Shown here: piece by piece, positions 1,402-61,113 of the stretch
How the letters are laid out: every line of letters begins with the position of its first letter
How positions within the stretch are numbered: position 1 is the first letter of the stretch
NCBI GenBank assembly: GCA_964544935.1
Contig: CAZJDZ010000004.1
Location: 15,802 to 79,801, forward strand
Direction: 5' to 3'
From: an uncultured Candidatus Saccharibacteria bacterium
GTDB lineage: Bacteria > Patescibacteriota > Minisyncoccia > Phycocordibacterales > UBA5272
Length of the DNA stretch: 64,000 nt
Translations under genes and position numbers: made by a program
The notes under the pieces: model-generated
The model's database searches: none
Told to the model about the DNA's origin: nothing
What the model saw: the letters and a program-made list of their open reading frames with translations, nothing else

Positions 1402-1917
1402 ATGTCCTCCCCTATTATTCGCATCATGGGAATCGATCCTGGTTTTGATCGGCTTGGTATTTGTATATTAGATAAAGAAGGAACGAAAGAGACGCTAGTA
1501 TTCTCAACATGTATTGTCACCTCAAGAAAAGATATGTTTGAGAAACGTCTTGTTGTGATCGGTGAACAATTAGAAACAATACTTACAACATATACACCCA
1601 CAGAACTTGCTATTGAGACGCTTTTTTTTACAAAAAACCAGAAGACAATTATAACTGTTGCTGAAGTTCGTGGTATATGTATTTATCTTGCACACAAAGT
1701 TGGTGTTGCGCTTTACGAATATTCTCCACCACAAATCAAATTAGCAATCGCAGGCCACGGTAAGGCATCAAAGGATGATATTGCAATTATGGTGCCAAAG
1801 ATTTTAAAACAACCCCTTCTTATACATACACTTGATGATGAAATAGATGCAATAGCAATAGCACTCACCCATAGTGCAAATCGTAATAATCGCCTTATTT
1901 TACAAAGATATTCTTAA
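1402..1917 (+). CDS. ruvC: crossover junction endodeoxyribonuclease RuvC
   Basis: IMGIDPGFDRLG catalytic N-terminus and RNase H-like fold; ORF track start 1384 is TTG, first ATG (MSSPIIRIMGIDPG) is at 1402. Confidence 0.85.
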   Translation: MSSPIIRIMGIDPGFDRLGICILDKEGTKETLVFSTCIVTSRKDMFEKRLVVIGEQLETILTTYTPTELAIETLFFTKNQKTIITVAEVRGICIYLAHKVGVALYEYSPPQIKLAIAGHGKASKDDIAIMVPKILKQPLLIHTLDDEIDAIAIALTHSANRNNRLILQRYS

Positions 1918-1952
1918 ATATTCACACAAAAACTTGCATAGATGTTTGTTAG

Positions 1953-2171
1953 ATGGTATCTTTTCAATACATTAAATTATTTTTGAGTAGTATGCTTATT
2001 GAAGAAGAAGAACCAAAGGTTGGTGGGGACGTAAATCCAGATGCTCTTGAAGCAGTTTTTGAGGAAGATGTTCTTATTGAGGAAGAAGATGTTGTATTTG
2101 CTGTTGTAGACGACGAAGAAGCTGATGAAATAGATATTGCTTTTGCAGCAAATGATGAAGGATACTGGTAA
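1953..2171 (+). CDS. small highly acidic protein (about 40% D/E), function unknown
   Basis: 72-aa ORF (alternative ATG at about 1992 gives 59 aa) followed by a strong hairpin terminator; no recognisable motif. Confidence 0.35.
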   Translation: MVSFQYIKLFLSSMLIEEEEPKVGGDVNPDALEAVFEEDVLIEEEDVVFAVVDDEEADEIDIAFAANDEGYW

Positions 2172-2265: not shown

Positions 2266-3459
2266 TTAGCTTACAATTATTTTTACAAATCGTTTCTTCC
2301 CTATTTTAAATGTTGCATTATATGCAAGTTGTTTTGGATCGATAATAGTCCCTTTCTCAACATCAGTAACTGCACCTTCTTGAATAAGTCTACGCCAATC
2401 TGTTTTTGAGGAAACGATTGCATTCTCGACAAGAATATCAGCTAACTCTTTATCGCCTGTTGTTTTTATTTCTGGAACACTATCAGGAACTCCTCCATTT
2501 TGAAATGTTTCAATCCAAGAGTTTTTTGCAAGTGTTGCATCTTTTTCTGTATGATACAACGTTACAAGCTCAGAAGCGAGACGCATCTTAATATCTTTTG
2601 GATTAACGCCGTCTGTTAATTCTTTTGTAAATCCCTCAATATCTGCAAGTGTTACATCAGTACAAAGAGTGAAATATTTAATAATTAAATCATCGTGTAG
2701 TGCCATTACCTTACCAAACATAGTATTTGGGTCATCAACGATAGCAATAATATTACCCCATGAACTCGACATTTTACGTCCATCAATTCCTTCAAGCATT
2801 TGGCATGTAAAAACACTCTGCTTTGGTTGTCCAAAATACTCTTGCATAATACGTCCAGCTTTTAAATTAAACAGTTGATCAAATCCCCCAAGTTCTACAT
2901 CTGACTTAACTGCAACAGAATCATATCCTTGCATAATTGGATACAAAAATTCACGAAGGGAAATTTCTACCCCTGTATCATATCTATCTTTGAAATTACG
3001 ACGAGCAAGCATTTGTTGTACAGAAAAACATTCAGCAAGACGAGTAACTTCCTCGAAAGAAAGTTTTGAGAGCCAATCACTATTGTGAACAAATTCTGTT
3101 TTTGAAAGGTCTAAAATCTTAGAAACCTGACTCTTGTAATCTTTGAGGTTCTCATCAATCTGAGCACGAGTAAGCATTGGACGCTTATCACTTTTATCAG
3201 ATGCATCTCCAACTTGAGCCGTAAAATCACCAACAATAAAAATAACTTGGTGACCTAGTTTTTGAAATTCTCGTAATTTACGAAGAGGAATTGCACGCCC
3301 TAAATGAATCTTTGGCCCTGTAGGATCAACTCCAAGCTTAATGCGAAGCTGTTTTCCAGAAAGGAGGAGTGCTCTTAATTCATCTTTTATAAAAATATCT
3401 TCAACTCCTCGAGTAAGGAGTTCTTCTATTCTTTTTTCATCAGTAATTACCTTATCCAT
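2266..3459 (-). CDS. tyrS: tyrosyl-tRNA synthetase (class I aaRS with C-terminal S4-like domain)
   Basis: GVDPTGPKIHLGR (HIGH-region equivalent) and KMSSS (KMSKS) motifs; 397 aa. Confidence 0.8.
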   Translation of the reverse strand: MDKVITDEKRIEELLTRGVEDIFIKDELRALLLSGKQLRIKLGVDPTGPKIHLGRAIPLRKLREFQKLGHQVIFIVGDFTAQVGDASDKSDKRPMLTRAQIDENLKDYKSQVSKILDLSKTEFVHNSDWLSKLSFEEVTRLAECFSVQQMLARRNFKDRYDTGVEISLREFLYPIMQGYDSVAVKSDVELGGFDQLFNLKAGRIMQEYFGQPKQSVFTCQMLEGIDGRKMSSSWGNIIAIVDDPNTMFGKVMALHDDLIIKYFTLCTDVTLADIEGFTKELTDGVNPKDIKMRLASELVTLYHTEKDATLAKNSWIETFQNGGVPDSVPEIKTTGDKELADILVENAIVSSKTDWRRLIQEGAVTDVEKGTIIDPKQLAYNATFKIGKKRFVKIIVS

Positions 3460-3476
3460 GGGTTGTATACTACCAT

Positions 3477-5711
3477 ATGCACCACTTTTCTTTAAGTGTG
3501 TGCTACTATAGACAAATGTCGGATTCTTATGTACATAGAAAAAAGCGAATAAAACACAGATTCTTTAAAGAATTCTTTCTTGTTATTTTTTCTTTGGGAA
3601 TTATTATACTTGCGTATGGAATAACATGGCTTGCAACCATGCAACTTCCGGATTTTAATAATTTTGAAAATAGAAACATAGCTAACTCAACAAAAATCTA
3701 CGACAGGACAGGTAAAATTGTTTTATATAATATTCATGATAATGTTCGTAGAACTGCAATCCCTATTGAAGATATAAGTCCGTATATTCAAAAGGCTACT
3801 ATTTCTATTGAAGATGCTCATTTTTATGAGCACTTTGGGTTTAGACCAACATCGTTTATTCGTGCTGTAATTACTAATATTACCTCTGGTGGTTATGCTC
3901 AAGGGGGTTCAACAATTGATCAGCAAGTTATAAAAAATGCTCTTCTTTCTCGTGAAAAAACTATTTCTCGTAAATTGAAAGAAATAATTCTTTCAATAAA
4001 ACTTGATCGTGAACTTCCTAAAGATACGATTCTTCAAATATATTTAAATGAAAGCCCTTATGGTGGAACTATTTATGGTGTTGAAGAAGCTTCTCTTACT
4101 TATTTTAATAAAAAAGCAAAGGATGTAACCTTAACCGAAGCCGCATACTTGGCAGCTCTTCCACAAGCTCCAACGTTTTATTCTCCATATGGAAAACATA
4201 GAGAAGAACTTGAAAAGAGAAAAAATCTTGTTTTAGAAAGGATGTATGAACTTAATCATATTACTAAAGAACAAAAAGATTTTTCTCAAAAAGAACAGGT
4301 AGTTTTTGAAAAAGATCTTTCAAACAGTGGTAAAGCTCTTCATTTTGTTATGTATATTCGTGAATATCTTGAAGAAAAGTATGGTATCGATATGGTTCAA
4401 AATGGAGGTCTTCGTGTTATTACAACAATTGATTATACACTTCAAAAACAATTTGAAGATATTGTAAAAGAAGGTGCATTAGAAAACATGAAGAAGTTTA
4501 AAGCTTCAAACTCTGCACTTGTTGCTATTGATCCAAAAACTGGGCAAATACTTTCTATGGTTGGTTCTCGTGATTTTTTTGATACAGAAATAGCGGGTCA
4601 ATTTAATATTGCAACAGCTTTTAGACAACCTGGATCTTCTTTTAAGCCAATTGTATATGCTGCTGCATTTAAACTTGGATACACCCCTGAAACTGTCTTG
4701 TTTGATATTCCTACTCAATTTAGTTCTCTTTGTGATTTTGAAGGAACTCCGTTGCGAGCCGGTGCTGATTCTTCAGTATGTTACATGCCAGAGAATTATG
4801 ATGGTCTTTTTAGAGGTCCTGTTTCTTTACGTGAAGCACTTGCTCAATCTCTTAATATTCCAGCAGTTAAACTTCTATATCTTACTGGTATTAATAATGT
4901 AATTACTCTTGCTCAAGCAATGGGTCTCTCAACAATTAATGATCCTAGTCGTTATGGTCTTTCTCTTGTGCTTGGTGGTGGAGAAATAACATTACTTGAA
5001 CTTACTAATGCGTACGGTGTATTTGCTAATAATGGTATGTATCATAAACAACAAGGTATTCTTGAAATACGAGATAGGGATGGAAGTATTCTTCAAAAAT
5101 TTACACAAGCAGAAACTGAAGTTCTTCCAGAATCAGTAACAACTCTTATTTCAAGTATTCTTTCTGATAATGTAGCACGAACAGCTACATATGGAGCCAA
5201 CTCTGCACTTTACTTCAGAGATAGACCTGTTGCAGTAAAAACAGGTACAACTAATGACTATAGAGATGTATGGGTTGTTGGATATACACCATCTATTGTT
5301 ATTGGTATGTGGGCAGGAAATAATGATAATACTCCTATAGATAAAAGGACAGCTGGGTTTGTACTCGCTCCTGTTTGGCGAAAATCAATGACTGTTGCTG
5401 TTGAAGGTACTCCGGTTGAGTATTTCCCTGATCCTCTCCCTAACACCTCTTCTAAGCCAATTTTAGAAGGAAAGTACTGTTCATTTAATGGTGTTCATAC
5501 TATCCTTGCTTCTGTAATAAAAAATAATCCTGCTGGAGAATACCCTATTAATCCAACAAATGATTCACAATATTTTCTTTGGGAAAATACTCTTCAGAAA
5601 TGGCTAGCAAATCATTCGCTTCCATGTGCAGGTGATACAACATCTCTTTCATCTTCAACTCCTTCAACTATAATTCCTACAGAAATAGCAACAACAACTT
5701 TTACACAATAA
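3477..5711 (+). CDS. class A penicillin-binding protein (glycosyltransferase GT51 plus transpeptidase) with C-terminal Ser/Thr-rich tail
   Basis: GT51 motifs EDAHFYEHFG and QGGSTIDQQ; transpeptidase SSFK, SxN and KTGTT motifs; N-terminal TM helix. Start uncertain (3477 or ATG at 3516) because tyrS starts divergently at 3459. Confidence 0.85.
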   Translation: MHHFSLSVCYYRQMSDSYVHRKKRIKHRFFKEFFLVIFSLGIIILAYGITWLATMQLPDFNNFENRNIANSTKIYDRTGKIVLYNIHDNVRRTAIPIEDISPYIQKATISIEDAHFYEHFGFRPTSFIRAVITNITSGGYAQGGSTIDQQVIKNALLSREKTISRKLKEIILSIKLDRELPKDTILQIYLNESPYGGTIYGVEEASLTYFNKKAKDVTLTEAAYLAALPQAPTFYSPYGKHREELEKRKNLVLERMYELNHITKEQKDFSQKEQVVFEKDLSNSGKALHFVMYIREYLEEKYGIDMVQNGGLRVITTIDYTLQKQFEDIVKEGALENMKKFKASNSALVAIDPKTGQILSMVGSRDFFDTEIAGQFNIATAFRQPGSSFKPIVYAAAFKLGYTPETVLFDIPTQFSSLCDFEGTPLRAGADSSVCYMPENYDGLFRGPVSLREALAQSLNIPAVKLLYLTGINNVITLAQAMGLSTINDPSRYGLSLVLGGGEITLLELTNAYGVFANNGMYHKQQGILEIRDRDGSILQKFTQAETEVLPESVTTLISSILSDNVARTATYGANSALYFRDRPVAVKTGTTNDYRDVWVVGYTPSIVIGMWAGNNDNTPIDKRTAGFVLAPVWRKSMTVAVEGTPVEYFPDPLPNTSSKPILEGKYCSFNGVHTILASVIKNNPAGEYPINPTNDSQYFLWENTLQKWLANHSLPCAGDTTSLSSSTPSTIIPTEIATTTFTQ

Positions 5712-46161: not shown

Positions 46162-46860
46162 ATGACAACACACACCAGAGAAGCAAAAGAAATGATTATT
46201 GATATACGAGATATCACCAAGAGTTTTACCGATGGAGATACAGTGACACAAGTGCTTAAAGGTATTAACCTTACCGTAGAAAAAGGTGAGTTCGTGGCAA
46301 TCATGGGACGCTCAGGAGCTGGCAAGTCCACCCTCCTCTATCAGATGTCCCTTCTTGATACTCCAACAACTGGTTCTATACGATTAGATGGTAGAGTCGT
46401 TGATGATTTTGGAAATGCAGAAAAAACAAAGTTTCGTCTTCGCGAGCTTGGGTATGTATTTCAGGACTACTCTCTTCTTCCAGAACTTACTGCACTAGAG
46501 AACATTATGGTCCCTCTTCTTATGCAAGGTGTTAGTATGAAGGCCGCAAAATCTCGCGCAGAGGAAGCTCTGACAAGTGTGAACTTGGTACATCGTAAAG
46601 ACAACCTCCCACCAGAATTATCCGGTGGTGAGCAGCAGCGTGTGTCAATTGCGCGCGCTATCACTCATAAGCCAAAGATTGTTTTTGCTGATGAACCAAC
46701 TGCTAACTTAGATACGTTTTCATCAAAGCTCGTTATGGATATTTTCAGAAAGTTAAATAAAGAAGATGGGCTTACTATTGTGATGGTGACGCACGAAGAA
46801 GATTATGGAAAGTTAGCTGATAGAATTATTAGATTGTCGGACGGTGTTGTGGTGAAGTAG
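46162..46860 (+). CDS. ABC transporter ATP-binding protein (MacB/LolD-like)
   Basis: Walker A GRSGAGKST, signature LSGGEQQRVSIARA, Walker B IVFADEPT. Confidence 0.85.
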   Translation: MTTHTREAKEMIIDIRDITKSFTDGDTVTQVLKGINLTVEKGEFVAIMGRSGAGKSTLLYQMSLLDTPTTGSIRLDGRVVDDFGNAEKTKFRLRELGYVFQDYSLLPELTALENIMVPLLMQGVSMKAAKSRAEEALTSVNLVHRKDNLPPELSGGEQQRVSIARAITHKPKIVFADEPTANLDTFSSKLVMDIFRKLNKEDGLTIVMVTHEEDYGKLADRIIRLSDGVVVK

Positions 46861-46865
46861 TTAAG

Positions 46866-46916
46866 CCGCGGAAAGTTGCGGAAAGTTGCGGAATGAACGC
46901 GGACTAATGCGGAAGT
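46866..46916. repeat. five helically phased GCGGAA direct repeats (spacing 10,10,11,10)
   Basis: GCGGAAAGTT GCGGAAAGTT GCGGAATGAAC GCGGACTAAT GCGGAAGTAT immediately after the ABC ATPase stop. Confidence 0.6.
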
Positions 46917-47127
46917 ATCATTCGGAGGAAGTGGCTCCGTTACGATCCCTGCTCGTGGAGCACTAAAAAATATTTATAAATTGTATAGATATTTTTGGTA
47001 TAAGTTAGGTAGGAACCTAACTCACAAAATATTTTTTGATTTAAACATAAAAGTGTTGTAGTGTATCTGCAACGGGTTACGCCTACCCATTCAATTAGGC
47101 GAATTCTATAATTTCTGGAGATGAATT

Positions 47128-47376
47128 GTGGCAGATGACACAAAATACACCATGCTTTTGGACGAAGGTGCAAAACTTGAAGTTGATCGGCTTCAAAGAG
47201 TCTACAGTTTAGAGACCTTAGAGACCAAGGCGGACGTCTATGATCTTGGTCTACGAGTCCTTCTTTGGATGACACAACAACAAGTTCAAGGTCGTGAATT
47301 TGGGTGTTACAGTGAAGAAGAGTTTCGACCACTTATCCTTCCTGTAACTTTGGACAAAAACAAATGGGTAAACTAA
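47128..47376 (+). CDS. small helical protein (possible ribbon-helix-helix-like regulator), GTG start
   Basis: GGAGA RBS 7 nt before GTG; 82 aa; own terminator; higher GC than surroundings. Confidence 0.4.
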   Translation: MADDTKYTMLLDEGAKLEVDRLQRVYSLETLETKADVYDLGLRVLLWMTQQQVQGREFGCYSEEEFRPLILPVTLDKNKWVN

Positions 47377-47389
47377 ATTATCTACACCA

Positions 47390-47423
47390 CCGAAAGCCAC
47401 CGCGCGTCGGTGGCTTTCTTTTT
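47390..47423 (+). terminator. intrinsic terminator (GAAAGCCACCG-CGCG-TCGGTGGCTTTCTTTTT)
   Basis: after 47128-47376. Confidence 0.55.
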
Positions 47424-47456
47424 ATATAGTTACTCTCAATCTTGTTTCACATAATA

Positions 47457-47520
47457 GTTCTAAATCTGTGTACTTTGTGGAGCACTTGAAAAACACACAA
47501 GATCATTGTATTATGTGTGT
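47457..47520 (+). promoter_or_regulatory. promoter module R1: operator-like GTTCTAAATCTGTGTAC, then TTGAAA-17-TATTAT
   Basis: motif shared with R2 and R3; drives 47543-47818. Confidence 0.45.
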
Positions 47521-47542
47521 CTTGTTCGTTTAGGAGAAAATT

Positions 47543-47818
47543 GTGAAACTTGCTGAAATCAAAATCGAAGGCGACGGTATAGTCATGGACCATAATTTCC
47601 CTTGTCCTTGCTGTGGAAAGCGTGCAGCAATTCTCGAAGGAGGACAGTTCAACCCCTGCTACTCATGTCAAGCAGAGGGACTCAACATTGTGAACCTTGT
47701 GAAGTCCCGGCCTTGGTGGATTCCGTTGAAGTTGTGGGAGCAATACTTCGGTGTAAACACATCATCGGCAAAAAGAAACAAGTCGTTCTTCTACAAAGAA
47801 ATGTCTTCAGTAATCTAA
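47543..47818 (+). CDS. small Cys-rich (zinc-ribbon-like) protein, GTG start
   Basis: AGGAGA RBS; CPCCGKR...CYSC four-Cys cluster; basic C-terminal tail; 91 aa; own promoter and terminator. Confidence 0.4.
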   Translation: MKLAEIKIEGDGIVMDHNFPCPCCGKRAAILEGGQFNPCYSCQAEGLNIVNLVKSRPWWIPLKLWEQYFGVNTSSAKRNKSFFYKEMSSVI

Positions 47819-47830
47819 CCGTCTTTCAAC

Positions 47831-47860
47831 GAAACCGTTGGAGGGCGGTTTCTTGTTTTA
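47831..47860 (+). terminator. intrinsic terminator (GAAACCG-TTGGAGGG-CGGTTTC-TTGTTTT)
   Basis: after 47543-47818. Confidence 0.5.
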
Positions 47861-47882
47861 TGTGCCCATCACATGCTCAAAT

Positions 47883-47954
47883 TTCCTCCAATCAAACGTT
47901 CTGAATCTGTGTACCATTTGGAGAACTTGACAAATTATAACAATATGATATACT
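47883..47954 (+). promoter_or_regulatory. promoter module R2: TTCCTCCAATCAAACGTTCTGAATCTGTGTAC, then TTGACA-16-TATACT
   Basis: near-consensus sigma70 promoter preceded by a motif conserved with R1 and R3. Confidence 0.5.
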
Positions 47955-47960
47955 TAATTT

Positions 47961-48185
47961 GTTAGGTTCCACTCCTTGATAGCCTGATGAGTGGTGAGGT
48001 TATCTGCTTGGTCAGCAGATTTCCAAGAAGGCTAGCGGGCCTCGAGGTTGTCGTACTCGAGAGTAACCGATAATGAAAACGACGGACCAATAAATTAAAC
48101 AGCACCAAGTGGTGCGGTCGGAGAAAGGAAAAACACCGACGCAGCGTACGCTGACGAACCCCGAGAGCGATCTCGGGGTTTTTAT
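47961..48185 (+). ncRNA. candidate structured small RNA (about 225 nt, unclassified)
   Basis: transcribed from the R2 promoter, ends in terminator ACCCCGAGA-GCGA-TCTCGGGGTTTTTT; about 50% GC against 36% genome; several local stem-loops; no ORF over 28 codons and no RBS. Confidence 0.35.
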
Positions 48186-48210
48186 ATTTTGGCTACCATA
48201 TTCTCATACT

Positions 48211-48293
48211 TCCTCCAATCAAATGTTCTGAATTTGTTTACAGTTTTGAGCTCTAAGCCTACATCTTGCGCTTTTTTGCACGTATGGTATACT
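48211..48293 (+). promoter_or_regulatory. promoter module R3: TTCCTCCAATCAAATGTTCTGAATTTGTTTAC, then TTGCGC-16-TATACT, heading a roughly 300-nt leader before nusA
   Basis: shares a 32-nt motif with R2 (4 mismatches). Confidence 0.45.
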
Positions 48294-48555
48294 AAAATAG
48301 TTAGTTTGGATGTGAGTTGTGTGTCGGCCTGTTAAGTTCAGCGCCGGCCATTTTTGTTAAAAAAATTAAAAATAAGAAAATTATTTCATCTGCTTTGTTG
48401 CATATAATTTTTGTTCCACGCGTCGTACTAGAAGTACGCCTTGGTCTCAAAAATTGTATGCGCCGCGCATCTAAAACAATTTTCTTGTTTTTTATAGTTA
48501 TACATTATTATTTTACAAACCTTGTTGCTATACGTTTTTTGCAGGATGTATTTTT

Positions 48556-48586
48556 GCTAAAAGCTGCTAGCTACAAGCTAATTGCT
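48556..48586 (+). repeat. AGCT-heptad repeat (GCTAAAAGCTGCTAGCTACAAGCTAATTGCT) just upstream of the nusA start
   Basis: 17/18 match to AGCTACAAGCTAATAGCT at 1361 and to its reverse complement at 24440. Confidence 0.55.
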
Positions 48587-48593
48587 ATTCATT

Positions 48594-49865
48594 ATGTTAG
48601 ACATCAAAGCCCTAAAAGTTGCTCTTGAGCAGCTTGAACAAGAAAAGAAGATCGCTCATGAGAAAGTTGTTGACGCAGTAGAGAAGTCACTCGCTGCTGC
48701 ATACCAAAAAGAGTATGGAAAGCGTGGACAAATTGTTCGCTGTCAGATTAACTTTGAAACAGGAGAAACAAGTTTTGAACAAGTGAAGATCGTTGTTGAT
48801 GAAACAACAGTTCGTATGCCGGTTGAAGGTGAGGAAGAGGAAGTTACTCCAGTTAAGGAAGCTGATGAAACAGCAGAAGGGCTCCTCCCTCGTTACAACG
48901 AAGAGCGTCATATTCTTCTCTCAACAGCAAAGCTTCTCAAGAAGAATGCAGAGCTTGGTGAAGAAATCGTCTTCCCACTTGATAACCAAGATGACTTCGG
49001 TCGTATCGCAGCGCAGACTGCAAAGCAGGTTATCGTCCAGAAGCTTCGTGAAGCAGAGCGTGAGAGTATCGTTGGTGAATTCACTGACAAGGAAAACACT
49101 ATTGTCTCAGGTGTTGTTCAGCGTGTAGAACGCGGAGCAGTGTTTGTTGATCTTGGTCGTACTACTGCTATCCTTCCATATGAAGAGCAGATCACACAGG
49201 AACGTCTTCGTCCTGGAGAGCGTATCCGTGCGTACCTTTTCTCTATTGAAGAAGGGTTCCGTGGACTCTCTATCCGTCTTTCACGTTCACATCCAAAATT
49301 CTTAATCGAACTTTTCAAAAATGAAAGTCAGGAAATCGCTCAAGGAACTGTAGAAATCGTAGCAGTTGCTCGTGAACCAGGAAGTCGCTCAAAGATCGCC
49401 GTAAAATCAAACGATGAACGCGTAGATCCAATCGGAGCATGTGTTGGTCAGCGTGGTGTGAGAGTATCAGCTATTACAGAAGAACTCTCTGGTGAGAAAA
49501 TCGATGTTATCGAATGGTCACCGGATGCTCGTCGTTTTATCGCGACAGCACTCTCCCCTGCTAAGGCAGTCTCTATCGAACTTGATGAAGCAGAAAAGAA
49601 AGCAACAGTTACTGTTACAAGAGATGAGCAGTCACTCGCTATTGGAAAAGGAGGACAGAACGTTCGTCTTGCTGCTAAACTTACTGGATGGAAGATTGAT
49701 ATTGTTTCTGGTGGTGAAATGGTTGCAGAGGCTGATGAAGCTGGCATCCTAACAGCACAGAGTACTGTTACTGATGAAACAATCACAGAAGAAGTAGAAG
49801 AAGTTCTTGAAGCTCTTAATGTTACAGAAGAAGTTGTAGCAGAAACTGTAGAAGAAGCTAAATAG
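48594..49865 (+). CDS. nusA: transcription termination/antitermination factor NusA
   Basis: N-terminal domain, S1 and two KH domains, acidic C-terminal tail; ORF track start 48582 is TTG. Confidence 0.9.
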   Translation: MLDIKALKVALEQLEQEKKIAHEKVVDAVEKSLAAAYQKEYGKRGQIVRCQINFETGETSFEQVKIVVDETTVRMPVEGEEEEVTPVKEADETAEGLLPRYNEERHILLSTAKLLKKNAELGEEIVFPLDNQDDFGRIAAQTAKQVIVQKLREAERESIVGEFTDKENTIVSGVVQRVERGAVFVDLGRTTAILPYEEQITQERLRPGERIRAYLFSIEEGFRGLSIRLSRSHPKFLIELFKNESQEIAQGTVEIVAVAREPGSRSKIAVKSNDERVDPIGACVGQRGVRVSAITEELSGEKIDVIEWSPDARRFIATALSPAKAVSIELDEAEKKATVTVTRDEQSLAIGKGGQNVRLAAKLTGWKIDIVSGGEMVAEADEAGILTAQSTVTDETITEEVEEVLEALNVTEEVVAETVEEAK

Positions 49866-58758: not shown

Positions 58759-60276
58759 ATGAGCACTACAGTACTTCTTATTGAAGGCGCTGTCACACTT
58801 ATTTTGGGAGGAGCAACGGGATATATTATTCGTCACCATGTTGCTAAGTCTCGACGTGGCTCGCTTGAGGCAGAGCTTGAGGAAAAAATCCTTCAGGCTA
58901 AGCGTGATGCGCGTGCAATAGAAGACGAAGCTCTCTCCCGAGCAAGTGCGCTCCGTGAAGAACTCAAGCGTAACGAAGATAGAGTTGCTAAGCAAGAGGA
59001 GCGTCTTGATCGACGTGAAAGCGAAGTTATACACAAAGAATCACAACTAGATAAAGAATTTGAATCACTCAAACAAAAAGGGAAAGAGCTAGAGTCTGTT
59101 AAAGAAAGACTTCTCGAAAAAGAAATTGAAGTTAGTAAGAGTCTTGAAAAAGCTGCGCAACTTTCACGAGAGGAAGCGAGAGAGCAGTTATTTACTAAGA
59201 TTGTAAAAGAGTCAGAAGAAGATATTCAATCACGAATGCTTAAACTTGCTCGTGATGGTGAAGTTCGTCTTGAAGAAAAAGCTCGTGATATTTTGGTAAG
59301 TAGTATTTACCGTATTGCAAATGGTCCAATTGCACAGTTTATGACTTCAATAGTTGAAATAGAAGATGAAGAAATAAAAGGTAAGGTTATCGGAAAGGAA
59401 GGTCGTAATATAAAAGCTTTTGAGCGACTAGCAGGAGTTGAGCTTCTTGTTGATGAGAATCCAAACGGAATTGTTATCTCTTGTTTTGACCCTGTTCGCA
59501 GGGCAATTGCAACCAATGCTCTTCAAATGCTTATCAAAGATGGACGTATTCAACCAGCAAAAATTGAAGAGTGTATCGATAAGGCGAAAAGAGAGATTGG
59601 GGTCTTTATGCGCAAGAAGGGAGAAGAAGCTGTGCTTGAGTGTGGACTCCTCTCAATGCCAGAGGAACTTATTCCAATCATTGGACGTCTTTATTTTAGA
59701 ACAAGTTATGGACAGAATGTGCTTAATCATTCTATCGAAATGGCGCACATTGCAGGAGTATTAGCACAAGAGCTTGGGGGAGATGTGTATGTTGCAAAAG
59801 CAGGAGCACTTCTTCATGACATTGGAAAAGCTGTTGATCATGAGATTCAAGGGACACATGTGGAGATTGGTCGTAAGATTCTTATGAAGTATGGAGTAGA
59901 TGATCGTGTGATTCTTGCTATGCAAGCTCATCATGAAGAGTATCCATACGAAACAGTTGAGAGTGTTCTTGTACAAGTAGCGGATGCAATATCAGGTGGA
60001 AGGCCTGGAGCACGTCGTGATACAGTTGATAGGTACATACAGCGACTTTCAGACTTAGAGGCGCTAGCAATGTCATTTAGCGGCATTGAGAGGGTCTACG
60101 CTCTTCAGGCGGGGCGTGAAATACGAGTGTTCGTGTCCCCACTTCTTGTTAATGATGTAGAAGCTCGTGATCTTGCACGCAATATCGCACTTCGTGTTGA
60201 GCAAGAGCTTCGTTTTCCGGGTGAGATTAAGATTCATGTTATACGTGAATCTCGTATGATTGAGTTTGCTCGTTAA
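58759..60276 (+). CDS. rny: ribonuclease Y
   Basis: N-terminal TM, coiled coil, KH domain (GKEGRNIKAFERLAGVELLV), HD domain (HSIEMAHIAGVLA...LLHDIGK); 505 aa. Confidence 0.88.
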   Translation: MSTTVLLIEGAVTLILGGATGYIIRHHVAKSRRGSLEAELEEKILQAKRDARAIEDEALSRASALREELKRNEDRVAKQEERLDRRESEVIHKESQLDKEFESLKQKGKELESVKERLLEKEIEVSKSLEKAAQLSREEAREQLFTKIVKESEEDIQSRMLKLARDGEVRLEEKARDILVSSIYRIANGPIAQFMTSIVEIEDEEIKGKVIGKEGRNIKAFERLAGVELLVDENPNGIVISCFDPVRRAIATNALQMLIKDGRIQPAKIEECIDKAKREIGVFMRKKGEEAVLECGLLSMPEELIPIIGRLYFRTSYGQNVLNHSIEMAHIAGVLAQELGGDVYVAKAGALLHDIGKAVDHEIQGTHVEIGRKILMKYGVDDRVILAMQAHHEEYPYETVESVLVQVADAISGGRPGARRDTVDRYIQRLSDLEALAMSFSGIERVYALQAGREIRVFVSPLLVNDVEARDLARNIALRVEQELRFPGEIKIHVIRESRMIEFAR

Positions 60277-60333
60277 AGAAAAAAGTATGCATGTGCTGGT
60301 AACTGTGAATAGGATAGTATGAGATGTAGAAAA

Positions 60334-60361
60334 TAGCGCGCAACCGAAGGTTGCGCGCTAT
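60334..60361. terminator. bidirectional intrinsic terminator (TAGCGCGCAACC-GAAG-GTTGCGCGCTA)
   Basis: between convergent rny and the Gam-like gene. Confidence 0.6.
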
Positions 60362-60405
60362 TGATTTTGTAATGCTCACTTGAGCATCTTGAGATATCTT
60401 GAAAG

Positions 60406-60981
60406 TTAGACGTCGATTGCCTCGGTCTTGCCTTCGTCCGGAAGAGCGATCGAAAGCTCTTCTGCACTGCCGTCGACCTTGCTTATGAGCTTCGGCTTGG
60501 CGAAGAACTCTTCGCGCGACAAGTACGAAACACCAGGTACATCAGGTCGATCAGAGAGTAGTGCTTCACGGTCGAGTTCATACTTCACACGGACGTACTT
60601 CGTCATGTTGTGGGCACGTAGATAGGCAACGACAGAAGCGTCGTCCTCACCCTCATCAAGCTCCACATATGGTGGCGTAAAGCGCCAACCAAACGTCCCC
60701 TGTTCAGTCTTCACTGAGCGAAGCTTGGCAGTGAGCTCCCCCTTCTTTCCTTGTGCGAAGGTGTAGAGTGCCGTGAAGAAGGTGTCACGCTCTTTGACAA
60801 GAGGAGTAAGCTCGACTTCGAGATCACTTTTGATCTTGTCGATCGCTTCCTTGGCTTTCTTCTTGGCAAGGTTGATCTTCTTCTGCTCTTGTCCGATTGA
60901 CAAGAGGTAGTGTGCAGCGTGGATGACGCTTTGAGGAACTGCGGTAAAACTCTTCTTCAGGCGATTGATAGTTGTTGAGGC
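60406..60981 (-). CDS. phage Mu Gam-like host-nuclease inhibitor / DNA end-binding protein
   Basis: MASTTINRLKK...FTAVPQ and GTFGWRFTPPYVELDEGEDDASVVAYLRAHNMTKYVRVKYELDREALLSD align with Mu Gam (SWRVRPPSVSIRGMDAVMETLERLGLQRFIRTKQEINKEAILLE); about 52% GC; ORF track extends to 61083. Confidence 0.7.
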   Translation of the reverse strand, partial: ASTTINRLKKSFTAVPQSVIHAAHYLLSIGQEQKKINLAKKKAKEAIDKIKSDLEVELTPLVKERDTFFTALYTFAQGKKGELTAKLRSVKTEQGTFGWRFTPPYVELDEGEDDASVVAYLRAHNMTKYVRVKYELDREALLSDRPDVPGVSYLSREEFFAKPKLISKVDGSAEELSIALPDEGKTEAIDV

Positions 60982-61113
60982 CATGGCAACATCTCCTAGT
61001 TGATTACTGGTGAAAGAACATTTGTCTTCCATAACTTTACTAGAGTACAAGTAAAATGTTAAACTGTCGGCGAAAGTCGACAAATATACTCAATCTTTAT
61101 ATTTCTTACACAC

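Follow-up and report, generated by a model that had tools for sequence, protein, structure and literature searches.

Does the short segment between a promoter and a terminator just upstream of nusA in the genome of an uncultured patescibacterium represent an RNA gene in its own right, and does it belong to a known family? The segment occupies positions 47961-48185 of a 64,000-nucleotide stretch of contig CAZJDZ010000004.1 (assembly GCA_964544935.1). This whole stretch is referred to as the window, and positions refer to it unless another contig is named. An earlier note, made by reading the letters, had proposed a candidate novel structured small RNA (sRNA) with its own promoter and terminator. 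We give slightly better than even chances to the following answer: the segment is a genuine, novel and accessory non-coding RNA gene of ~195-225 nt, whose product acts in trans.

Transcription signals, coding capacity and database searches

The candidate RNA body spans positions 47961-48155 of the plus strand (~195 nt, GC content 0.50) and is without a match in Rfam. It is preceded by a promoter at 47927-47954, which consists of the −35 hexamer TTGACA (47927-47932), a 16-nt spacer carrying a TG dinucleotide (47946-47947) and the −10 hexamer TATACT (47949-47954). This TG-extended promoter scored 11 of 12 and was the top promoter-like site within 46500-49500. Since the total number of promoter-like sites in this region was not above that of shuffled sequences, the weight rests on the quality and conservation of this particular promoter. 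Transcription would start near G47961. The unit is closed by an intrinsic terminator at 48156-48189 (GAACCCCGAGA-GCGA-UCUCGGGGUUU, then a U-rich tail), whose hairpin at 48156-48181 comprises 11 pairs, 6 of them G-C, around the GCGA loop, with TTATATTTT directly after it. Both the TTGACA-16-TATACT promoter and the strong intrinsic terminator described earlier are therefore present, the former with the TG element in addition, and the estimate of about 50% GC agrees with the 0.507 measured for 47961-48185. For comparison, the GC content is 0.383 for the 64-kb window, 0.42-0.45 in the two adjacent small open reading frames (ORFs) and 0.33 in the nusA leader.

On the plus strand, the longest ORFs start with ATG at 47987 (28 aa) and with GTG at 48109 (40 aa), and the latter reads through the terminator into a repeat module located downstream. 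A Shine-Dalgarno sequence was not found for either of them, in line with the lack of a ribosome binding site stated before. On the opposite strand, one frame is open across 76 codons and contains a 48-aa ORF that starts with TTG. A protein search with this open antisense frame among 5.8 billion proteins gave no match, and six-frame tblastn of the segment against 147 related loci gave nothing below E=0.1. A decayed protein gene was rejected, as translated similarity to any cassette protein in the 147 loci was missing. The antisense-frame protein search, meant also to reveal homologous RNA loci covered by mis-called genes, provided no candidate.

For known RNA families, all 4227 covariance models of Rfam 15 were run on the whole 64 kb at gathering score, and additionally at E<=10 with permissive filters on 47300-48700 and 47955-48192. 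There was no match at gathering score anywhere in the 64 kb, so that the Rfam scan suggested in the earlier note turned up no known family. At E<=10, the locus yielded noise only (at most 17.6 bits, compared with gathering scores of at least 37). ARAGORN detected no tRNA or transfer-messenger RNA (tmRNA) gene across the window. The impression that the segment is unlike tmRNA, RNase P RNA, signal recognition particle (SRP) RNA and 6S RNA thus held up in both searches. For 6S RNA (RF00013) there was no hit at E<=10; the predicted fold is multibranched, and the RNA is strain-specific. The T-box family (RF00230) did not match at E<=10 with permissive filters either, and the sole C/D-box hit, sR18, was at noise level (11.6 bits, E=2.5). 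Homologs were equally scarce in other collections. Blastn against phage and plasmid collections retrieved just promoter-like scraps (E >=0.3), viral contigs contained no match to five exact or two-part patterns derived from the RNA, and no RNA homolog was found by blastn or nhmmer in 80 nusA loci of relatives, in which only the nusA promoter and the early leader are kept.

A second copy, its conservation pattern and the predicted fold

A single scan of 241 million metagenome records on both strands, using the exact sequence of a kink-turn (K-turn)-like motif of the candidate RNA as pattern, returned one contig, L132, which carries an RNA homolog at 3825-3595 (minus strand). When L132 was compared with the whole 64-kb window, similarity was confined to 47924-48251, that is to the −35 region, the RNA, the terminator and the downstream module; upstream of the −35 hexamer the two sequences are unrelated. 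The RNA body and terminator (47961-48185) were identical in 216 of 226 aligned columns (95.6%), the promoter region (47924-47960) in 31 of 37 positions and the downstream module in 58 of 66. Accordingly, 10 differences in the 226 columns of the RNA face 14 in the 103 positions of the flanks, which are ~86% identical (Fisher p=0.005). In the promoter region, none of the 14 positions that make up the −35, TG and −10 elements has changed; the 6 changes fall among the other 23 positions, mainly in the spacer and discriminator (p=0.06). The RNA itself contains two invariant blocks, 47961-47995 (35 nt) and 48085-48157 (73 nt), and 8 changes are clustered in its middle third, 47996-48084 (p=0.0015). 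The terminator of L132 shows two changes, A48158G (A-U to G.U) and G48169A (in the loop), and is kept, as is the promoter, so that a unit with its own promoter and terminator, as proposed earlier, is found in the second copy as well. The exchange G47996U introduces a stop at codon 4 of the sole ATG ORF. Taken together, the uneven conservation, the stop at codon 4 and the empty tblastn and protein searches support a conserved, independent non-coding transcription unit that matches no described RNA family. At the family level it is plausibly novel, an orphan accessory sRNA.

The evidence for a defined structure is more ambiguous. With the terminator included, the folding z-score relative to shuffled sequences was -3.13. 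Without it, the score was -1.73, and the reverse strand equals this value at -1.70; folding energy by itself is therefore no proof of a structured RNA, and the designation 'structured' of the earlier note is not borne out, folding without the terminator being just 1.7 standard deviations below shuffles and alike on the opposite strand. The local hairpins listed there all exist as sequence, but the CTCGAG/CTCGAG hairpin has one wobble change and one broken pair (A48060U) in L132. With two sequences, pairing compatibility can be judged and covariation cannot. In the RNAalifold consensus (61 pairs), none of the 10 differences breaks a pair: seven are unpaired, and three within stems stay wobble-compatible, namely G48084A (U.G to U-A), A48082G (U-A to U.G) and A48158G (A-U to G.U). 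As the consensus was derived from the same two sequences, this agreement is suggestive. The GAUAGCCU/AGGUUAUC helix of the single-sequence minimum free energy (MFE) structure is broken by U48001G.

Among the elements of the consensus is a helix on the plus strand between UUGUCGU (48048-48054) and ACGACGG (48079-48085), in which two one-sided changes keep pairing. Together with the hairpin CUCGAG (48041-48046)/CUCGAG (48056-48061) it could form a sterically possible H-type pseudoknot. Two invariant hairpins follow at 48102-48143 (plus strand), one with the sequence GCACC-AAGU-GGUGC and the other formed by GCGGUCGG/CCGACGC around a purine-rich loop of 14 nt, AGAAAGGAAAAACA; the stretch 48085-48157, which spans both, is without any substitution between the homologs.

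The best structural lead is a putative K-turn-like hairpin arm at 47980-48034 (plus strand), which was read from the sequence by eye. Its canonical part would comprise a 6-bp C-stem (UAGCCU/AGGCUA) and a 3-nt bulge (GAU), followed by tandem G.A/A.G pairs (GA 47989-47990 with GA 48027-48028), a further G.A and UGG/CCA; the distal part would consist of an internal loop, a 7-bp AUCUGCU/AGCAGAU stem and a UGGUC cap. A K-turn-like motif of this quality occurred in 1.2% of 5000 dinucleotide shuffles (p ~0.012). Constraining the fold to the K-turn gave -56.2 kcal/mol compared with -59.4 kcal/mol for the MFE structure, a cost of 3.2 in an energy model that ignores non-canonical pairs. The K-turn motif itself is identical in both homologs, and the two substitutions in the arm, G47996U and U48001G, are both located within its internal loop; U48001G would break the MFE helix that competes with the arm. 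The CCACUC/GAGUGG hairpin is another competitor of this arm, and none of the substitutions favours one over the other.

The strain-specific island and arrays linked to tRNA-Asn

The RNA is encoded in a region that varies between close relatives. The sister strain L092 (95% nucleotide identity) aligns with the window up to 46916 and again from 48263, with a gene for a 266-aa protein in between. At the same site, L001 carries a similar gene (268 aa) and L003 nothing, and the RNA cassette is absent from this site in L092 and in L001-L004. Because the content of 46917-48262 is lacking in L092, L001 and L003, the RNA belongs to a 1.35-kb strain-specific island (46917-48262, plus strand) located between an ABC-transporter ATPase gene (46162-46860) and the nusA promoter. 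Two Logan contigs (L097 and L098) are identical to the window. The gene for NusA is located at 48594-49865, and a search with this protein retrieves metagenome-assembled genomes of Paceibacterota/Parcubacteria, which identifies the host as a patescibacterium.

The island is composed of three units in the order ORF82 with a terminator, ORF91 with promoter and terminator, and the RNA with promoter and terminator. ORF82 (47128-47376, plus strand; terminator at 47392-47418) is a small gene without a Pfam or PHROG match, and the exact protein occurs only in L097 and L098. ORF91 (47543-47818, plus strand; promoter at 47486-47514, terminator at 47817-47850) encodes a small protein with a CxxC...CxxC zinc ribbon that belongs to no Pfam family. 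Five homologs with 71-86% identity were found in unrelated contexts, three of them adjoining tRNA-Asn or hpf; among the other contexts are a position after a ribosomal-protein operon and one adjoining an NYN-domain gene. Judged from these contexts, ORF91 appears to behave as a mobile small gene. A link between the RNA and ORF91 was considered and dropped, as the RNA is adjacent in none of the five ORF91 homolog loci.

A repeat module of ~60 nt, present in three copies, separates the three units. The copy in front of the RNA (47863-47926, plus strand) ends with ...TCCTCCAATCAAACGTTCTGAATCTGTGTACCATTTGGAGAAC and abuts the −35 hexamer of the RNA promoter; it forms direct repeats with 48190-48250 (79%) and 47435-47493 (73%). 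The downstream copy, DR2 (48190-48252, plus strand), moves together with the RNA cassette, and the −35 region of nusA begins shortly after it. A profile search with the module detected more copies upstream of small genes in L081, L082, L089, L091 and L138 (among them L081 2656-2700, 5090-5139 and 5611-5644, L089 1308-1349 and L138 3587-3640), and in several Paceibacteria the module sits just upstream of the −35 hexamer of a small-gene cassette. In viral contigs, the module pattern gave 33 single matches, by our own estimate roughly what chance would yield. The module holds a near-palindrome, GTTCTGAA(C/T), and ends with GGAG(C/A)AC, like the 3′ end of tRNA-Asn. The copy before ORF91 ends with 14 nt that equal the tRNA-Asn 3′ end plus flank, GGAGCACTTGAAAA. 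The module may bind a regulator, mark the boundary of a cassette, or do both.

A decayed tRNA-Asn fragment (46908-46962, plus strand) marks the left edge of the island. It covers the 3′ two-thirds of the tRNA, from the D-arm to the 3′ end (...CGATCCCTGCTCGTGGAGCAC), and its local alignment with the intact tRNA-Asn(GTT) of L132 scored 39, compared with a maximum of 35 in 1000 shuffles. This remnant points to an origin in a tRNA-Asn-linked array or to an integration event. Between it and the stop codon of the ABC ATPase gene, short tandem-like repeats of GCGGAA(A/T)G (gcggaaagttgcggaaagttgcggaatgaacgcggactaatgcggaag) are found at 46866-46915. In L132, the RNA promoter starts ~70 nt downstream of the intact tRNA-Asn(GTT), and tRNA-Asn also heads the small-gene arrays of L081 and L084, which contain ORF91 homologs. 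Taking the tRNA-Asn remnant, the tRNA 3′ end within the module and the context of L132 together, the island appears to be part of a cassette array linked to tRNA-Asn, transplanted to a position upstream of nusA. Just downstream of the RNA cassette of L132, at 3365-3525 (minus strand), we observed a G+C-rich element of ~130 nt with a long inverted repeat (AGTGCTCCGCGGG ... CTCGCGGAGCACT). It is preceded by a small terminator-like hairpin and followed by the promoter of the next cassette, and could represent another non-coding element or serve as a site of recombination.

The arrays downstream of tRNA-Asn are highly variable. From the tRNA onward, L137 shares 93.5% identity with L132, yet it does not carry the RNA cassette. 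In L137 and in another relative, L134, elements with large serine recombinases abut tRNA-Asn at the place where L132 has its array. The recombinase genes, which encode Resolvase and Recombinase domains, are located at 4011-5684 in L134, where the gene overlaps the 3′ end of tRNA-Asn, and at 4326-6065 in L137; the cargo of these elements includes AAA_25, Macro domain, N6_N4 methyltransferase and DUF5659 genes. The element of the Paceibacterium L137 also contains a LOOT RNA (RF03000, 92.7 bits) at 1871-1990 (minus strand), so that mobile DNA carries a further non-coding RNA at this hot spot. The arrays differ between two strains whose HPF proteins are identical, and many assemblies break at the tRNA-Asn array. 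Sampling of tRNA-Asn/hpf arrays by means of HPF homologs gave 15 further loci and no additional copy of the RNA, but brought the recombinase elements to light. The proposal of an RNA gene made in the earlier note thus stands, while its genomic setting had been overlooked: the gene is no sRNA of the core genome, and forms a strain-specific, horizontally shared cassette in a variable array linked to tRNA-Asn.

Some further features of the region were recorded. The nusA promoter lies at ~48266-48295, and the start of the leader (48296-48350; GTTAGTTTGGATGTG..GTCGGCCTGTTAAGTTCAGCGCCGGCCATTTTT) hardly varies among L001-L003 and can still be recognised in L004. At its end, ~250 nt before the start codon, is a hairpin followed by a T-run; this part of the leader has no Rfam match and may be a transcription attenuator for autoregulation of nusA. 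The nusA 5′ leader also contains an A/T-rich inverted repeat of 36 nt (48358-48393/48467-48502, 75% complementary) in a region partly conserved in L002. Complementarity was observed between ORF82 and the nusA leader (47218-47240 and 48429-48451, 23 nt at 87%), between the ORF82 5′ untranslated region and the RNA (47012-47021 and 47961-47970, 10 nt, perfect) and between the ORF82 terminator and the RNA (47404-47422 and 48124-48142, 19 nt at 84%). Probably, all three reflect chance or shared cassette parts, and those between ORF82 and the RNA are unconvincing because L132 has no ORF82 nearby. A prediction of trans targets with RNAduplex, in which the full RNA was run along the window, resulted in a featureless distribution whose top hits (~3.9 standard deviations) were implausible full-length duplexes, and was discarded. 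The GC content of the window peaks at 49% in the bin 60001-61000, over the ORFs at 58759-60276 and 60406-61083.

A probable trans-acting accessory RNA and its alternatives

In the explanation that we favour, promoter, RNA, terminator and the 60-nt repeat would make up a self-contained cassette of ~330 bp, which would be part of the accessory genome of Paceibacteria (Patescibacteria), would have moved between genomes and would reside in the hypervariable arrays that accumulate downstream of tRNA-Asn from small cassettes with promoters of their own. The neighbours of the RNA are entirely different in the window and in L132, which argues against a fixed adjacent protein partner and against a cis-regulatory role. 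Because the adjacent genes differ completely in the two known locations, action in trans is most likely, presumably on a partner encoded elsewhere by both hosts. Our best guess is that the two invariant blocks, 35 nt at the 5′ end and 73 nt in the 3′ part, the latter with the purine-rich 14-nt hairpin loop and an A/U-rich linker, would be the functional surfaces and that the K-turn-like arm at 47980-48034 would serve as a handle for protein binding. The sequences show directly the signals for transcription, the lack of coding capacity, a body more conserved than its flanks, a cassette-like distribution and the setting at tRNA-Asn; that the RNA is made, that it acts in trans, that it forms a K-turn and that it has a partner, be it protein or RNA, are predictions.

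Several points weigh against this explanation. Transcription of the RNA is deduced from sequence signals. Only two distinct sequences, 95.6% identical, are known, and this high identity could partly reflect recent transfer instead of selection. The family also appears to be very rare: with the pattern used, a single one of 241 million metagenome records matched, and neither viral contigs nor the 147 related loci gave any match. Several alternative secondary structures, which exclude one another, are in equally good agreement with the data, the fold without the terminator is hardly better than that of the reverse strand, and the K-turn was noticed post hoc. Finally, a functionless transcribed remnant of a cassette would look much the same. 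Such a relic would have been a small-protein or integrative-element cassette, of which promoter and terminator survive and the interior is decaying. The array is indeed full of integration debris such as the decayed tRNA-Asn fragment and degenerate modules, the sibling cassettes encode small proteins, and the z-score of just -1.7 and the extreme rarity of the family would suit a relic. We nevertheless consider this unlikely, given that the RNA body is 3x better conserved than its flanks (p=0.005) and contains two long invariant blocks, that its GC content of 0.50 exceeds the 0.42-0.45 of the coding cassettes, that every stem substitution keeps pairing and that translated similarity to cassette proteins was missing in 147 loci. 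If the RNA is an inert remnant after all, the finding is an ordinary one.

A cis-acting leader or attenuator of the riboswitch or T-box type is distinctly unlikely. Here the 5′ domain would sense a signal and decide between the terminator and an anti-terminator helix (48041-48049/48157-48165), with read-through into nusA. The layout read from the sequence is reminiscent of T-boxes: the first arm has a K-turn-like base, a pseudoknot is possible and a terminator closes the unit. The 5′ half of the terminator can also pair with CUCGAGGUU (48041-48049). In this helix, A48045G of L132 turns the one mismatch (A.C) into G-C, and A48158G keeps U.G. However, by our own estimate chance alone would produce about one 9-bp helix with a single mismatch to an 11-nt target per 195 nt, and no T-box or riboswitch matched even at E<=10. 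The genes downstream differ, being nusA in the window and a 67-aa ORF in L132, each of them has its own promoter and is separated from the RNA by the repeat module, and the nusA promoter and leader are kept in relatives without the RNA. Very unlikely is a function at the DNA level, in which recombination or attachment would take place at the segment, or proteins would bind to it, with its palindromes acting as folded or duplex DNA, like an integron attC site. The segment is rich in palindromes (CTCGAG...CTCGAG, CAGCGTACGCTG and ATCTGC...GCAGAT), both of its strands fold equally well, and the cassette array to which it belongs occupies an integration hot spot, at which large serine recombinases are found in relatives. 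Yet the recurrent unit of the arrays is the 60-nt module, whereas the RNA segment is unique to one cassette; promoter and terminator bracket it precisely and are conserved at their functional positions, and neither the window locus nor that of L132 contains a recombinase. A small protein gene, on either strand, is highly improbable in spite of the short plus-strand ORFs and the 76 open antisense codons. The 28-aa ORF is stopped at codon 4 in L132, the 40-aa ORF lacks a Shine-Dalgarno sequence and crosses the terminator into the module, and the 48-aa antisense ORF has a TTG start and no promoter, is unmatched in 5.8 billion proteins and faces two internal hairpins with T-rich tails that are terminator-like on that strand. 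Just as little credence can be given to a highly divergent housekeeping RNA (6S, SRP, RNase P or tmRNA) missed by Rfam. RNAs of Patescibacteria often diverge, and the 64-kb window contained no recognisable RNA gene at all; but the segment is missing at the same locus in a 95%-identical strain, is a horizontally shared accessory cassette, lacks even a weak match to these families at E<=10, and its size and predicted multibranch fold do not fit the 6S rod or RNase P.

The favoured explanation, a trans-acting RNA gene in accessory DNA, has counterparts elsewhere. Trans-acting sRNAs encoded on islands and prophages include Spr of the Staphylococcus aureus pathogenicity islands, Isr of Salmonella islands and DicF of the Qin prophage. 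Like these, the candidate is a stand-alone gene of 100-300 nt with a sigma-70-type promoter, a Rho-independent terminator and no conserved ORF, is located in horizontally acquired strain-specific DNA and is missing from close relatives. In contrast to them, it has no sequence or Rfam relationship, its host is a Patescibacterium, and it resides in a 330-bp RNA-only cassette of a tRNA-Asn array and not in a large island or prophage. RNA antitoxins overlap an adjacent toxin gene in antisense (type I) or contain tandem repeats (type III). A role of this kind was rejected, as the RNA is free of internal tandem or direct repeats, its neighbours differ completely between the two loci, and ORF91 homologs occur without the RNA.

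The putative arm, CCUGAUGAG...AAGAAGG, fits the consensus of K-turn RNAs (canonical stem, GAU bulge, tandem G.A/A.G). Its bulged strand GAUGAG is the same as at the base of Stem I of the glyQS T-box, and resembles box C (RUGAUGA). Compared with T-box leaders, the candidate lacks a specifier loop, a T-box sequence and a downstream aminoacyl-tRNA synthetase gene; its arm measures only 55 nt, and neither a specifier loop nor a distal T-loop platform as in Stem I can be recognised in it. A box-C-like CUGAUGA is present at 47984-47990, as in box C/D sRNAs, but the partner strand AAGA (48025-48028) is located within the hairpin and is not the box D sequence CUGA, and with ~200 nt the candidate is 3-4x longer than archaeal C/D sRNAs (~50-70 nt). 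A relation to TIGR-Tas, IS110 bridge RNAs or box C/D RNAs (PMC12045711) was rejected, as there is no array, no nearby Nop-domain or transposase gene and no box D partner. The array itself is similar to integron cassettes and to the tandem accretion of cis-mobilisable elements at tRNA genes in its short exchangeable units, its recurrent ~60-nt repeat, its hypervariability between strains, its position beside a tRNA gene that is also targeted by recombinase elements and the tRNA 3′ remnant at the island edge. In contrast to these, promoter and terminator belong to every single cassette, an RNA without a protein gene makes up one of them, and no integron integrase or attC-type site was seen.

A more far-reaching interpretation, which we regard as possible but doubtful, is that a K-turn-bearing structured RNA of ~200 nt spreads as a mobile RNA-only cassette among Paceibacteria, within an undescribed integron-like system of mini-cassettes at tRNA-Asn, and represents a new class of accessory structured RNA. 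If so, it could, for example, sequester a protein or act against phages or competitors via a K-turn-binding protein of the host. Patescibacteria have tiny genomes, few recognisable regulators and symbiotic lifestyles, and to our knowledge almost nothing has been reported on their regulatory or structured RNAs. The candidate RNA is short and easily synthesised, which makes it suitable for structure probing and pull-down of partners. Independently of the RNA, the mini-cassette array with its 60-nt repeat at tRNA-Asn is a separate lead on the flexible gene pool of these reduced genomes. An RNA gene that moves as its own cassette would mean that RNA genes are exchanged besides small protein genes at this tRNA-linked hot spot.

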